DNA of 64,000 bases, taken from contig OZ242195.1 in the NCBI GenBank assembly GCA_965205975.1, positions 1,984,001 to 2,048,000 on the forward strand. The letters are read 5' to 3'. This DNA comes from Candidatus Latescibacterota bacterium (lineage in GTDB: Bacteria > Latescibacterota > UBA2968). The position numbers were made by a program. Of the stretch, positions 18,001-24,000 are shown piece by piece. Numbering within the stretch: the first letter of the stretch is position 1; each line of letters begins with the position of its first letter.

Positions 18001-21000
18001 GCGAAGATATCCCCGTTATGGCACAGGGAGCCATCCCATTTTGGGTCGATAGAGCTGGGTTTTATGCGCCAGACAGCCTGAACTATGGCGAACTATATCT
18101 CCAATGCCTTTGCCAGCACCTCACATTTAAAGAATCAAATGACCGCCAACGGGCCACCTACCGCGTAGAAGCAACCTTTTACACCGAGCGCGATACCATT
18201 CCCTTCAAATGGGAAAAACAGATTGTCACAGGCGTGGGAATAGATCTGCGCGACCAAATGATTACAGAGGCGTTGCGCTTCAGAATCGCTCCCGGCACCT
18301 ACCGGGGTCGCGTTCGCCTGAAAGATTTGCAGGCCAATGCTGAAGGCACCTGTGAACTTGCCTTTACAATGCCCGAATTTGACAGCGCCGCCTTGATCAT
18401 GAGCGACATCCAGTTTGCCCATCGAATTGACGCCGAGAACTCACAGACCAGCAGCAGCCTGGTCAAAAATGGGTTCAAAATCATTCCCAATACGCGCAGG
18501 TCAATAGACACGACCTTAAACATCTACTTTGAACTGTATGGCCTTGCCGAAGGCGAGGGACGCGCTGCAACTTTTGACCTCGCCTATACCCTCCTGGATA
18601 CCGCGGGACAGCGGATCAAAAACTTTCCCTCAGCGCGCTACCGCAAACCCGGCACAACTGCAATTAAAACCGAATCTCTCGATCTCAAAGGTGTACCGCC
18701 AGGGCATTATGTACTGCAAATCACTACCCGCGATAATGGCACTGGCAAAATGACCACGCGCCAGAGAACCTTTTCAATTGTAGATGTGCAAAAACCCACA
18801 CTGGCAACAGACCCCGCCTCTTTAAAACGCTATTACAAACAAATCCGCTACATCGCCACAAAAGCTGAACGAGAAACCTATGCCTCCTTGAGCACGGCCG
18901 AGAAAGTGAAATTTATTCTCTCTTTCTGGAAAAAACATGATCCAACGCCTCTAACGCCCGAAAATGAATTTGCCACCGAACATTTCAAGCGCATCCGCTA
19001 TGCAGACGAACGCTTCTCTGCGCGTCCAGGACAAAAGGGATCGGATACCGATCAGGGGCGCATCCACATCAAGTATGGCCTGCCAACAGACATTGAGCGC
19101 AGTCCGTTTAGTGCTACCGGCAAAGCTTTTGAAATTTGGACCTACGAACACCTCAACTACTACGAGTTTGTATTTCTGGATCGCCTCGGAGATGGCGTTT
19201 ATGAAATGATCCACGCCACCATGCCAGGAGAACGCTACAACCCCAACTGGCGAGACGAACAAGCCATCGGTGACCAAACCGACCCCACATCGCTGCCATC
19301 TGAGGCATATTCTCCGCCATAAGCAATCGATCAAACCTATGGCAAAAACGCCAGTCTCTCAATACAAATCAGAATACCTGTCCAAACCCAAGACAAGTGG
19401 CGTAAGCCTTCGCGCCATTGTATTGGGTCTCGCGCTCGTTGTCCTGATCAACCTCTGGATGCCCTATTCAGAGTACATCGTGCGGGCATCGCGCATGAAC
19501 CTCAGTCACTTTCCGGTCGCAGTATTCATCCTCTTTCTCCTCATACGCTACCTGCTCACCCCCCTACTATCAGCCTGGAACCCCACCCTTCTTTTAACCC
19601 CTTCTGAACAGTTCGTCATCATTGCAATGGGACTTGCAGGTGGTGTCGTGCCCGGATCAGGTGTACTCGGTTTTCTCTTTGGGACCATTGCTACCCCGTA
19701 TTATTTTGCCACGCCAGAAAACCGCTGGGCGGACTTCTTTCACGCCCACCTTTCCACCTATTTGGTACCCCCCAATACCAACGGCGCAATGCGCGATTTT
19801 TACGAAGGCGCACTGCCCGGCACGCCAATCCCCTGGTCTATATGGGGCGCACCCCTTTTTTGGTGGCTTGTTTTCATCGCCGCCATTGTCTTTGTTTCGG
19901 CCTGTATTGCAGTTATCTTGCGCCGCCAGTGGTCTGAAAATGAACGTCTGGCATTTCCTCTGTTAAGTCCGACCCTGCATATTGTTTCTCCAGAACAAAC
20001 ACGCGATAACCCCTTGCAGTACAGAGGTCTCTACTGGGCGGGATTCGCTCTTTCCTCTGGCATTCTCGCCTGGAATATTCTCCATTTCTTCTGGCCTATC
20101 GTGCCCGATATTAAACTGACACTTCCCTTTTTTTATTTCGCCAAAGGTTATCCCCCTATCTTTCCCCGGTTCAATATTTACGTCATGGGATTTGCCTATT
20201 TTGCCAACCTCGACGTGCTTTTCAGCATGTGGTTCTTCCATCTCCTTTTTTACCAAATCCCAGGTGGCCTCTTAAATCGCATTGGATTTGACATGTCCGG
20301 CCGCGGCGACCCTTATGGTGCGCTTCACTTTTCCGGCGCGGGCTGGTTGTGTTTTGGCGCTCTGTGTTTTTTCGTTTTTTGGGGATTGTATATCTCTCGC
20401 CATCACCTCAAAGCAGTCCTTCTCAAAGCCATCAATCCACAACACCCCATTGACGACACCCGGGAACTCTTATCTTACCGCACCGCTATTTTAGGACTAC
20501 TTATTGGAACAATTTTTATTTTTTTTTGGTTGTATCAATCCGGCATGGCCCCCTCAACAATCGCCTTTTACATTGTAACCACCTTTGTCATTTACGTAGG
20601 CGTGGCGCGTGTCGTCGCGCAAACTGGCATCCTTTTTGTGCAAGCCCCAATCAGCGCACAGGTTTTCACCATTTATTCTCTGGGCGCACACGCCCTTTCG
20701 ATGCCCACGATGACATCGCTCGCCCTCTCCTACGCACTCACCAATTATATTCGCGGTCTGTTTATGCCCGCATTAATCCATATCGCCAAACTATCCGAAT
20801 GGATCAAAGCCGACCACCGCAAACTTTTAGGCGCGGTCTTTTTGGGATTAGTCGTCGGCTGTCTGGCGTTTATTGTATATGTCATACCCCTAGGTTATGA
20901 AAGGGGAGCTTTCAATTTTAACGACATTCCGCTCAAATCGGGTATCAATCGGATCTATCCGGTGATTCTCAGCAAAATTGTCAATCCCTTTGATCCCGAC

Positions 21001-24000
21001 TGGCAAAGACTGGGCTTTTTTGGCGGCGGTGCAGCATTGATGGGATGCCTCACATTCTTACAATATCGCTTTCCCTGGTGGCCCCTGCACCCCATTGGCC
21101 TGACTGTTTGCAGCACCAATGTCGCCCGCAGCAATCAGGTCTCTATTTTTATTATTTGGGCATTCAAATTGTTCGTACTGCATTTTGGCGGTGTCTCTGC
21201 TTATCGTCGTTTTCAGCCCTTCTTTATTGGCCTGCTTACCGGTTATGGCCTGGGAGTCGCGCTGTCTTTTATTGTCGATGCCCTGTGGTTTTCCGGTCAG
21301 GGACATTACGTACACAGGTGGTAAACAAACGCGCGAAAAACAGTGCCAAATATTAAAAAGCCGATGTAAAAACATCGGCTTTTCTTGAAAATCTGTCGCG
21401 CGATCGCCTGCTGATCCTCCATACGCAACAACACAGCGCCCAGCTTTGTCACCGCATCAACATCATCCGGTTCCAGGGACAAATAGCGCGTATAATACGC
21501 TGCGGCTGTTGCATTGTCTTGAGACAATGCGTAAAAATCATCGCGCGCAAACCAATCCCCCAACAACTGATAGGGCGCGCTATACGTCGAATCAATCGCA
21601 ATCGCCCGATACGCCATATCCACGCACTGATCCGTACCGATATCAAAATACACCGACGCCATCTGGTAATACAAATCTGCGTGCGTCGTATCCGCCTCTA
21701 TAGCGCGATAAAAATACGAAATCGCGCGCCAGCGCGACCATCCCCCGATTTACCCAGCCCGGTCCGTCTTGCGGCTCCGGTTGATTTGCCCAGGCATCTG
21801 TCTGAGTACCCGATTTAACCTTTGCCAATCCCGCGACCAGATCCGTGGCAATAGTCTGTGACAAATCGTCAAACCGATCCTTGCGCCAGACGCGCCGACC
21901 ATTGGCACTACCCGCCCATAAGATACGACCGGAAGACGTATCAATCAGCCGCAGTGCAACCCCCACAGCATTGATCGCATTGTCCTTGCCAGTAGCCATC
22001 AAACTACCGCATAAAACAGCATCTGATCTATGCGCCAACAGCATTCGCTCAGCAGCACTCAGACGCGCGCCTACTCGCTGTGACATATCCAATCCATCAA
22101 ATAACCCATCACCTATTATACCCTCTCTAATCAACCGCTCATACCCGCCCACCAGTGCTTTTTGCGAAGTATGCAAAGGTGAGAATACCGCCTGCAACGG
22201 CCACTCATCTGACCGCATCATCCGCCCGTGCCGATTGGCTTCCTGAAACCCGAGTTGCGCCATCAAATTGCCCAGTGCAATCTCTCCAATATCGCGCTGG
22301 GCATAGATCCACTGCCATTCGACATCATCCCGCGCCTTGCTCGTCCAAATGGGTTCTCCAGTATCCAGATCCACAATCCACACATGCAATGTGCGCGTCC
22401 CGGCATCAGAAACAAATCCGATCAACGCCTGCTCTGCACGGGCCGCTGTTTTCAACAAAAACAAATCATAGTCTTTCAACGCCTGTTTTGTCTCCACCAT
22501 CCCCTTCATCTTGATCCGTGGAATCGTATCAGGCTCCACCAGTTCAAACCAGCGCCCCTGATAGGCGGGAATATCCCGATGCCGCATCAACTCATCTACC
22601 AATCGGTCAGCCATAAAAACCCCGTAATCGGGATCCTTCTCTGAAAGTAGTGGAAACACCGCCAGACGAGGAGCCGCTTCGCGCTGCGGCAAGTCCTCCT
22701 CACACTGCACCGCTGAGGAAAACACAAGCAATAGAATTGAAAGAGAATATCTCACGTCTCACCGCCTTTAATTATTAATCGCCATTCGCGTCGCTTCTAA
22801 GAACGTTTCGTATCTTTGAGGGCCACCGCGCAATACGCGGACAATCTCACCTTTGGCATCAATAAAAAAGGACCTGGGAATACCAGTGTTCTCATACGCA
22901 TTGTTCACTTCTCCCACCGCGTCGAGAACAAAAGTCCAGGTGTAGCCATATCTTGTGACAAAACGCAGCACCAGGCTACGCGATTCTCGCAGGTCAATAC
23001 CGACGATCTGGATGGAATCGCCCATAGTATTTTGCAACTTTTGCATGTCGGGCATTTCAGCAACACAGGGGCCACACCAGGTTGCCCAGAAGTTGAGAAG
23101 CACGGGTTTGCCGCGCTGTTCATAGAGATTGAACGATTCCCCAGTGAGGGTTCTCAGCGTAAAGTCAGGAGCTTGCATCCCAACTTCAATGCCAACGGGA
23201 GCGTCGGTGGTTGGCGGAGGGGTTGGCGCGGTGGTTGTCTGCCCGTAGAATTGGGCAAAAATGACAAAGTCCCGAAAATTGACTGCGCCATCCCCATTTA
23301 AATCAAACTGGGTCTGGGTTGTTCCATAGCCCTGTGAAAATGCGATAAAATCGGCAAAATCCACTTTGCCGCTGTTGTTGAAATCACAATCTGCTACGGT
23401 TGGTGCTGCGTGTACCGAGGCAGGTAGGAGCAGGAAAATTAATGTCATAACATACTTCATGGCATTCCTCCATTCACGATGTCCTCGTTTGCCGCAGGGG
23501 GCATGCGCCGCTCATTCTCCTTTACCGTGGGCTTCAACGCGCCAAACCGCACATCAACCCCTCTATCTCGAAGGGCTGGAATATGCGTGTTGAGCGATGT
23601 GGCACTTAAGGGGTTATTCCGTACATCAACTCTGTCTCCACGGCCCAATCCCCTGTTTGCAACCAGAGGCGAAAGGTCTGTGATGTTGTTGTTGTAAAAA
23701 AACAGATAGTCCAGACTCATCCAGCTAGATAGCGCAGATATATCTGAAATGTCGTTGCTGCCAAGATCCAGTAATCTCAGGCTGGCCAAGTTTGATAGTG
23801 GTGCAATGTTCGAAATGTCGTTGCCGGAAAGAGACAGCCGTTCCAGGCTGGTCAAGTTTGATAGCGTAGATACATCTGAAATGTCGTTGTTGAAAAGATG
23901 CAGAAATCTCATGCTGGTCAAGTTTGATAGCGCAGATACATCTGAAATGTCGTTGTTGCCAAGATTCAGTATTTCCAGACCGGTCAAATTTGATAGTAGC

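Follow-up and report, generated by a model that had tools for sequence, protein, structure and literature searches.

The last gene of a six-gene uptake cassette in the window (the whole stretch of 64,000 nucleotides analysed here) encodes, in one uninterrupted frame, a polytopic membrane protein of 661 aa carrying the domains DUF6785 and DUF6784. DUF6785 and DUF6784 make up a single protein, which fold and profile homology place, almost certainly, in the OPT/YSL superfamily as a very remote branch found in prokaryotes. The full explanation, an OPT-branch inner-membrane importer that ends the cassette and has anionic carbohydrate as its most likely cargo, is advanced with moderate confidence.

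Family size, fold and kinship with OPT proteins

Searches against Pfam returned DUF6785 (PF20581) at residues 24-523 (E 2.7e-105; 353 bits against a curated cut-off of 25) and DUF6784 (PF20580) at residues 560-648 (72 bits against 26.4). Together the two families span one transporter, and the 661-aa protein belongs fully to each. Neither has a function in the Pfam descriptions shown, and neither NCBIfam nor PHROGs has a family covering the protein. Searches of the literature outside subscription journals with both DUF names and both accessions gave no paper, as the survey had reported for DUF6785.

A phmmer search of the genome translated in six frames (16,870 ORFs) recovered exactly 35 paralogues (worst E 1.7e-72), and both DUFs were present in 35/35, confirming the survey's count. 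Using the starts called in the present analysis, these proteins are 600-680 aa long and 27-44% identical to the 661-aa protein (26-73% over all pairs, median 34%), in agreement with the size and divergence first described. The family was present in 18/18 genomes of the same genus, throughout which it had been said to occur, and in 61/61 of the same class (genomes searched, own included); it was found in 0/14 controls. DUF6785/DUF6784 and an unnamed, putatively sister family together comprise 7,466 clusters at 50% identity. Two tandem pairs had been noted; one is directly tandem, but the second has one gene between its members. Promoter and terminator scans returned weak consensus sites only. 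Seventeen RNA runs contained 5-32% of the sampled words, a figure that does not bear on expression or habitat.

The predicted model of the 661-aa protein (pLDDT 93.2, pTM 0.93) was compared with solved structures using two programs. The top Foldseek match was HvYS1 (7wst; E 1.1e-8, TM 0.63/0.68), followed by a match at E 0.1; only two of at least 500 matches passed E 0.001, both of them HvYS1. VIA-align gave 7wsr a Z of 23.2 with 549 residues aligned at rmsd 3.9, and the next chain a Z of 5.5. A Z of 8 or more was reached by one of 48,161 chains, again HvYS1. Both programs matched the YS core and scaffold fold along the whole chain, so that HvYS1 stands, from an independent model, as the sole whole-length fold match that had been proposed. 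At the sequence level, neither the protein nor two family profiles matched YS1 when searched against the PDB. The N-terminal and C-terminal halves, compared for an inverted repeat at the sequence level only, gave a probability of 2.1% (E 0.022).

HvYS1 (TC 2.A.67; PMC9691689) and the DUF6785 protein share the whole-length fold (549/600 residues), a similar size, an unwound second helix rich in glycine and proline, a basic TM9 residue close to K482 and a Q/H-x-x-K motif in TM9. They differ in that identity is 11-14% and in that the DUF6785 proteins are bacterial, occur as dozens of paralogues per genome and are linked to a TonB cassette.

Profile comparison with hhalign matched a 148-member family alignment to 12 bacterial OPTs at 95.4% probability (E 1.8e-8, 427 columns). 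Probabilities were 95.4-95.5% with diverse alignments and 44-48% with narrow ones; 25 other polytopic clusters of the genome, used as controls, gave at most 1.45%, and a reversed OPT alignment 0.24%. Homology to classical prokaryotic OPTs spans 427-529 columns. One relative, L126, carries DUF6785, DUF6784 and Pfam OPT together (OPT 33 bits against a cut-off of 25.8), and an Atlas cluster of 878 members is 95% DUF6785 and 11% OPT. An unnamed family links the DUF6785 and OPT sides with profile probabilities of 96.1% and 90.1%. The hhalign results, L126 and this bridging family thus reinforce the superfamily assignment made earlier from fold. Pfam OPT (PF03169, cut-off 25.8 bits) matched 0/35 paralogues at E<=1, again as first reported. 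It had no match in the genome and was absent among the 25 families listed, out of 28, for 73 diverse members. Automatic database names already point toward the OPT link.

The most conserved stretch in common with classical OPTs (residues 194-207) has the pattern ILR[RK]QW..E.ERL.[FY]P, the OPT counterpart being PLRR....E...L.YP; E202 is kept in 99% of 281 weighted sequences. Classical prokaryotic OPTs (PF03169; clusters 4-5 of PMC3061005) resemble the family in the LR[RK]..E..L.[FY]P stretch and in length. They differ in context, which is reported to be peptidases for OPTs and is TonB cassettes for DUF6785.

The cassette and its neighbourhood

Table 1. Features of the cassette locus, in window coordinates.
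Feature	Position	Strand	Basis
Beta-helix, BNR-propeller and amidohydrolase genes, upstream, co-oriented, outside the mobile unit	6331..10494	+	Pfam
Small outer-membrane beta-barrel, 232 aa; opens the mobile unit after a gap of 218 nt	10713..11411	+	PF13505 E 4e-9
TonB-dependent transporter (TBDT; CarboxypepD_reg + Plug + barrel), ~1070 aa	11424..14645	+	Pfam, NCBIfam
Protein X, secreted, 760-769 aa by start choice	14661..16970	+	Model, structure matches
PorV/PorQ-family outer-membrane barrel, 313 aa	16987..17928	+	NF033709 164 bits, cut-off 90
GWxTD-domain protein, apparent signal peptide, 459 aa	17943..19322	+	PF20094 E 8.9e-9, TIGR04514 E 1.7e-28
DUF6785+DUF6784 polytopic membrane protein, OPT/YSL-fold transporter; closes the cassette	19339..21324	+	Pfam, model, Foldseek, VIA-align, hhalign
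Residues 194-207, most conserved stretch in common with classical OPTs	19918..19959	+	Profile alignments
TM9 motif H481-x-x-K484, matching YS1 Q493-D494-F495-K496	20779..20790	+	Ungapped profile register

Genes within the six-gene unit (Table 1) are separated by 14-42 nt. The unit, GWxTD gene included, was whole in 11/11 orthologous loci fetched, which occupy two genome sites, all belong to one genus and are non-independent. The second site is empty in the present genome. The upstream beta-helix, BNR and amidohydrolase genes were found in 6/11 of these loci and were missing from the five at the second site.

Paralogous cassettes picked by protein X contained a DUF6785 gene in 8/8 cases. Six of the 11 TBDT-X-PorV triads are followed on the same strand by a DUF6785 gene within five genes (background 2.5%, p ~1e-7), and 5/11 have none within five genes. 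Five copies had been described downstream of such triads, and all were recovered there, within two genes. For 27/35 paralogues no triad lies within five genes upstream; the partnership with TBDT-X-PorV cassettes that had been suggested for the family is supported for the present gene and seven other paralogues. At its own locus the protein is likely to be the cassette partner. In a quick tree the copies linked to triads were not recovered as one clade (six changes, with 66/500 shuffles as low).

Protein X matched no Pfam family at cut-off. Its model (pLDDT 93.7) predicts a galactose-mutarotase-like beta-supersandwich, an Fn3-like domain (a weak match, E 0.19) and a T9SS-type C-terminal domain. 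A Z of 18.6 was obtained to the glucoamylase N-domain and, for model residues 631-745, a Z of 12.2 to the PorZ C-terminal domain; PorZ was also the top Foldseek match. The beta-supersandwich is found in glycoside hydrolases, phosphorylases and mutarotases, and is a common fold that shows no function. Neither the gene after the TBDT nor the other cassette genes matched SusD in Pfam or NCBIfam. By analogy with SusC/SusD loci, the place of SusD after the TBDT is taken here by a predicted beta-supersandwich with a T9SS-type tail.

A triad of TBDT, T9SS-domain protein and PorV-PorQ is described in the alginate utilisation locus of Rhodothermus marinus (PMC9530828), and by type and order its three genes correspond to those found here. 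The inner-membrane gene listed for the R. marinus locus, 1,278 nt long, encodes a predicted mannuronate transporter, and that locus includes lyases, whereas the unit here ends with the GWxTD and DUF6785 genes and has no lyase. No recognisable glycan-cleaving enzyme was found in the mobile unit.

Sulfatases and PhyH proteins had been listed as immediate neighbours of the paralogues. A sulfatase lies within one gene of 4/35 paralogues (2.39 expected, p 0.21) and within two genes of seven (4.40 expected, p 0.14). For PhyH the counts were 4/35 within one gene (1.48 expected, p 0.06) and five within two (2.86 expected, p 0.15). Even with family sets seeded from the paralogue neighbours themselves, no excess was obtained. 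Such neighbours exist, but no more often than chance predicts in a genome with 163 sulfatases and 99 PhyH genes. They were accordingly rejected as substrate evidence, and the proposal of sulfated oligosaccharides, which rests on them, was not sustained. Two copies were said to adjoin SSF symporters; one of the six SSF genes adjoins a paralogue. Neither GFO oxidoreductases nor enolase-type dehydratases were enriched near paralogues. An enrichment of xylose-isomerase/UxuA proteins (6/35) was dropped as circular, since the small set had been built from neighbours.

Of the 35 paralogues, seven have a GWxTD gene no more than three genes away (0.96 expected, p 2e-4); none of the papers listed by a literature search has GWxTD. 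In one relative (P0201) DUF6785 is fused to MacB/FtsX domains, and one paralogue shares an operon with a 1505-aa FtsX-domain protein.

Pocket residues and energy coupling

In YS1, D490 and D494 of TM9 are described as the proton-binding residues (PMC9691689). The best-supported register across TM9 is ungapped, and was obtained from two direct profile alignments and transitively through an unnamed bridging family. In this register the two aspartates correspond to positions 478 and 482, neither of which is aspartate in the 661-aa protein (Ala478 and Ile482). An acid (D/E) occurs there in 1 and 3 of 281 sequences respectively, and anywhere within 474-485 in 15/373. The equivalent pair is invariant in 12 bacterial OPTs (D423/D427), a further difference between classical OPTs and the DUF6785 family. 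On these alignments the YS1 pair has probably been lost from the family, short of proof. Because no acid matches either aspartate in the best-supported register, proton coupling, part of the original proposal, is not inherited evidence and finds no backing in residue conservation.

The TM9 register is not unique. Two other profile alignments give registers with a six-residue gap, which bring D/E487 (266/373 sequences) close to the OPT aspartates, at a distance of one or two residues. In addition, E/D428, about two residues from YS1 D446 in the TM8-H6 loop, occurs in 287/373. These frequencies and both gapped alignments favour a YS1-like proton symporter with shifted acids, E428 serving for D446 and D/E487 for D490/D494. 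We consider this unlikely: each of those registers requires the gap, whereas the ungapped register is recovered both directly and through the bridging family; residue 487 is placed by the model past the end of helix 476-485; and position 428 is Gln in the 661-aa protein and Ala or Thr in a seven-member paralogue clade. With the aspartate pair apparently lost, energy coupling would probably proceed by other chemistry, for example E428 with H481, sodium, or exchange.

Basic residues are conserved in the pocket (R/K424 in 370/373, K/R472 in 286/373). Many of the top covarying columns map onto segments forming the YS1 pocket, a covariation confounded by descent; positions 428 and 481 were not linked.

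The apparent aspartate loss, the GWxTD excess and the FtsX associations also point toward a facilitator, an exchanger or an exporter, or toward a scaffold in the membrane for large partners in the periplasm (GWxTD/TPR or giant FtsX-type), in place of an energised importer. This is very unlikely given that the transporter fold is kept over the whole length, that the core retains its basic residues while the pocket-lining segments vary, and that linkage to a TonB importer is close. An importer is the likely identity of the DUF6785+DUF6784 protein.

Cargo, proposed role and significance

By comparison with YS1, the importer would be an inner-membrane secondary transporter of the elevator type. 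Protein X, which the T9SS-type tail would direct to export and which the PorV-like barrel of the cassette probably retains, would capture a solute; the TonB-dependent transporter would then move it into the periplasm, and the DUF6785 protein would carry it across the inner membrane, this order being presumed.

Anionic carbohydrate fragments or sugar acids are the leading candidates for this solute, with different paralogues perhaps tuned to different solutes, a view that we hold tentatively and at slightly less than even confidence. Carbohydrate remains plausible because of the fold of protein X and because the Rhodothermus alginate locus has the same triad. Against it, the OPT substrates reported in the available text of the sources do not include sugars; they comprise peptides, glutathione, folate and metal chelates. 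The same fold and cassette could accordingly serve a canonical OPT/YSL cargo (oligopeptides, modified peptides, cofactors, or metal chelates entering via the TonB receptor). Siderophores and cobalamin also enter through TonB receptors, 6/11 orthologous loci have an amidohydrolase gene upstream, and the closest non-DUF Atlas clusters are labelled 'peptide transporter' (score 0.79, a lead only). A canonical cargo is nevertheless distinctly unlikely in view of the carbohydrate-enzyme type of the X fold and the characterised alginate locus with the same triad (PMC9530828). Moreover, no peptidase family was seen (by eye, with no chance test) among the 132 genes that flank the paralogues at a distance of up to two genes, which include sugar-acid dehydratases, heparinase II/III, a fucosidase and a glucuronyl esterase. 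NPG and KIPPR, described as motifs of the OPT peptide (PT) clade (PMC3061005), are missing from the 661-aa translation.

It is possible, if on balance doubtful, that DUF6785/DUF6784 and the unnamed sister family constitute a huge prokaryotic OPT arm without the proton-binding aspartates and with other coupling, which would act, with a mobile SusD-less TonB cassette, as the main and enormously diversified inner-membrane importer of glycan fragments in Latescibacterota and similar uncultured heterotrophs.

DUF6785 represents a remote offshoot of an established superfamily and not a new kind of machine. The family is large: throughout an entire class of uncultured bacteria, each genome has dozens of copies. 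Since Pfam labels do not count it as a transporter, metabolic reconstructions miss a major import capacity. The apparent aspartate loss probes the generality of the proton mechanism proposed for YS1. Placement among OPTs, the pocket map and the link to a mobile TonB cassette make both substrate and coupling ion directly testable. If the glycan-importer reading is true, no OPT lineage before this one would have been a carbohydrate importer, and a gap in the account of how these bacteria take up complex organic matter would be filled.

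Homology and fold of the DUF6785 family

The focal gene is an open frame of 661 residues with an ATG start, lying 16 nt behind the preceding gene. Pfam assigned DUF6785 (residues 24-523) and DUF6784 (560-648) to its product and nothing else. The survey's finding of 35 paralogues was reproduced in the 5.56 Mb single-contig genome: 35 of 16,870 ORFs matched, with a gap from E 1.7e-72 to E 10. As reported there, both DUFs were found on every paralogue (35/35) and the Pfam OPT family PF03169 on none (0/35). The nearest named relatives were Latescibacterota MAGs (89-99% identity). 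All 61 class-level genomes searched contained the family, mostly with at least 20 matches each, and none of 14 control genomes matched. A profile search returned 7,466 clusters at 50% identity, 2,814 of these at E<=1e-30. Variants included a 2120-aa protein (P0201) with MacB/FtsX domains and DUF6785 fused behind, and three proteins (P0175, P0207, P0217) with a 200-250 aa insertion separating DUF6785 from DUF6784.

A reference alignment comprised 12 classical OPT proteins of the same phylum, and its profile recovered barley Yellow Stripe 1 (HvYS1; E 7e-34). Narrow DUF6785 alignments matched this reference weakly (48% and 44% probability); diverse alignments gave 95.4% and 95.5% over approximately 427 columns. 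Among the controls, the highest value for 25 other polytopic clusters or single proteins of this genome was 1.45%, and reversing the OPT alignment gave 0.24%. One relative, L126, carried DUF6785, DUF6784 and PF03169, the last above its cut-off; another, L130, passed the PF03169 cut-off in one search and not under hmmscan. In an Atlas cluster of 878 mostly archaeal members, DUF6785 was present in 95% and OPT in 11%. Neighbouring Atlas clusters carried the automatic names 'peptide transporter' or 'OPT' (scores 0.78-0.79), which are no more than leads and hint at the link. A second OPT-like family without a Pfam label was placed between DUF6785 and classical OPT, matching them at 96.1% and 90.1% respectively. 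This bridging family was found in 61/61 class genomes, with two genes here (see table) and further members at L122, L125 and L151-L198. Because of the profile matches and their controls, L126, the Atlas cluster and the bridging family, descent of DUF6785/DUF6784 from the OPT superfamily is well supported, and the survey's assignment to it stands.

The predicted model of the focal protein (109 sequences) had pLDDT 93.2 and pTM 0.93. Foldseek returned two matches below E 0.001, both HvYS1 (TM 0.63/0.68), and a third at E 0.1 (TM 0.13). VIA-align, a program independent of Foldseek, was run against 48,161 chains and gave 7wsr (HvYS1) at Z 23.2 (rmsd 3.9, 549/600 residues), with the runner-up at Z 5.5. 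HvYS1 was thus upheld as the sole solved match over the whole length, and the survey's caveat that a single structure program had been run is answered.

Coupling residues and predicted pocket

Excerpts of Yamagata et al. (PMC9691689) describe an elevator mechanism for YS1, a pocket to which the TM1-H1 loop, TM2, TM9, H6 and H7 contribute, with K482, and impaired transport upon mutation of the aspartates D446, D490 and D494. The counterparts of D490/D494 in bacterial OPTs, D423/D427, were invariant (12/12). In an ungapped register, also reached transitively via the bridging family, focal residues H481, K484, A478 and I482 correspond to YS1 Q493, K496, D490 and D494. Column 481 held H/Q/N in 351/373 sequences and column 484 K/R in 338/373; columns 478 and 482 were acidic in 1/281 and 3/281. 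The bridging family likewise has no TM9 aspartate pair in aligned register. We regard the pair as quite probably lost in the DUF6785 family. Weighing the other way, two alternative alignments with a six-residue gap placed D/E487 (D/E in 266/373 sequences) 1-2 residues from the OPT aspartates; in the model, residue 487 lies beyond the helix end. Proton symport via relocated acids, which departs from the importer proposed below only in the coupling step, is considered rather unlikely. Column 428, near D446, was acidic in 287/373 sequences and is Gln in the focal protein. Since the pair is probably lost and position 428 is Gln, the proton coupling that the survey had proposed is not simply transferable from YS1.

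Conserved basic residues at R/K424 and K/R472 would suit an anionic cargo. Pocket segments were highly variable among paralogues, and many of the top covarying columns were 41-56, 107, 470-473 and 529, covariation being confounded by descent; both patterns would fit divergent specificities. One well supported clade of seven paralogues (L079, L081, L083, L086, L095, L101, L106) has K424 and, at 428, Ala/Thr with no acid there; it would be the most suitable group in which to test for another mode of coupling.

The six-gene cassette and its surroundings

Intergenic gaps in the cassette were 14-42 nt. Protein X was searched in 31 family genomes, and 11/14 orthologous and 8/24 paralogous places were compared; the loci compared come from one genus and are not independent. 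All six genes were retained in the same order at 11/11 orthologous loci, six at the focal site and five at a second site, four of those five between genes that are adjacent here. The unit is therefore mobile, taking its DUF6785 gene along and leaving behind the beta-helix, BNR and amidohydrolase genes that lie upstream of it. Among paralogous cassettes selected via X rather than via the DUF, 8/8 had a same-strand DUF6785 gene downstream; three of them were truncated at the end of the retrieved sequence. At 78 loci picked by the DUF, X was within 6 kb in 11 and a TBDT in 8, more distant MAGs (L028, L033, L063) being among these.

The genome contained 11 TBDT-X-PorV triads, one with a split TBDT. 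A same-strand DUF6785 gene followed within two genes in 5/11 and within five in 6/11, against backgrounds of 1.2% and 2.5% (p ~1e-7), which confirms the linkage noted by the survey. Eight of the 35 paralogues were tied to triads; the other 27 were elsewhere, often amid catabolic enzymes. GWxTD genes lay within three genes of 7/35 paralogues (0.96 expected), an enrichment absent from the survey. This linkage and the FtsX/MacB fusion would favour a non-energised or scaffold role, which we judge improbable. The genome has 24 GWxTD-domain genes (that of the cassette and 23 others), many of which contain TPR repeats; they are overrepresented around DUF6785 genes and PorV cassettes. The term appears in none of the seven papers that a literature search listed.

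Genes were called with a simple hexamer model (4,560 calls), and the 132 within two places of the 35 paralogues were scanned. Sulfatase and PhyH genes were not enriched there over the whole-genome background (163 and 99 genes), so that their use by the survey as substrate evidence falls to chance level. The high sulfatase background is consistent with sulfatase richness in a related lineage, as excerpted from PMC7081726.

The predicted model of X (pLDDT 93.7) shares a beta-supersandwich with glucoamylases, GH94 phosphorylases and mutarotases; the best match had Z 18.6 at rmsd 2.9, with 236 residues aligned. Residues 631-745 resembled the PorZ C-terminal domain (Z 12.2, rmsd 2.3, 91 aligned). 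The triad matches the three gene types (TBDT, T9SS-domain protein, PorV/PorQ) of the Rhodothermus marinus alginate locus, as outlined in part of PMC9530828. X may be tethered by the PorV-like barrel and stand in for SusD.

Elsewhere in the window, a single-chain protein of ~1050 aa has parts resembling the beta and beta' subunits of RNA polymerase, with a DFDGD motif at 757-761, and appears to be a second, compact polymerase of the two-barrel type. It is directly preceded by a small ORF which, by eye, we take to resemble an ECF sigma factor. Two larger homologues (1237 and 1363 aa) elsewhere are presumably the ordinary RpoB/RpoC.

Features discussed; positions count within the window unless a contig or locus is named
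Feature	Position	Strand	Remark
Small barrel	10713-11411	+	cassette
TBDT	11424-14645	+	cassette
X	14661-16970	+	cassette
PorV-like barrel	16987-17928	+	cassette
GWxTD	17943-19322	+	cassette
DUF6785+DUF6784	19339-21324	+	cassette, focal gene
Redoxin and LRR proteins with dockerin-like, weak cohesin-like domains	22768-25505	-	Pfam
BlaI-type repressor, then BlaR1/M56 peptidase fused to four TonB C-terminal domains	28558-31352	-	Pfam
RNA polymerase-like protein	32522-35710	-	
Small ORF	35722-36342	-	
Bridging family	G000:C1:312884-314941	+	adjoins giant FtsX-type gene
Bridging family	G000:C1:1561177-1563621	-	adjoins giant FtsX-type gene
Split TBDT	L144:9253-12443	-	two ORFs, 367 and 677 aa, within triad

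Proposed role and novelty

The reading we favour, with some reserve, is that the focal protein would act as an elevator-type inner-membrane importer completing a TonB uptake route, with coupling chemistry different from that of YS1. Its cargo would most likely be anionic carbohydrate fragments, a proposal that on its own remains tentative and slightly short of even. Peptide or metal-chelate cargo, known for OPT proteins from portions of PMC3061005 and PMC12687453, is unlikely here.

The literature search found no paper naming DUF6785 or DUF6784; databases or supplements may already hold the assignment, and the main text of a 2026 OPT phylogeny (10.64898/2026.08.27.747422) does not contain 'DUF'. 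This analysis adds the rejection of the sulfatase/PhyH argument, the controlled profile homology of DUF6785 to OPT, the probable loss of the D490/D494 pair, and the finding that the six genes move as a block.
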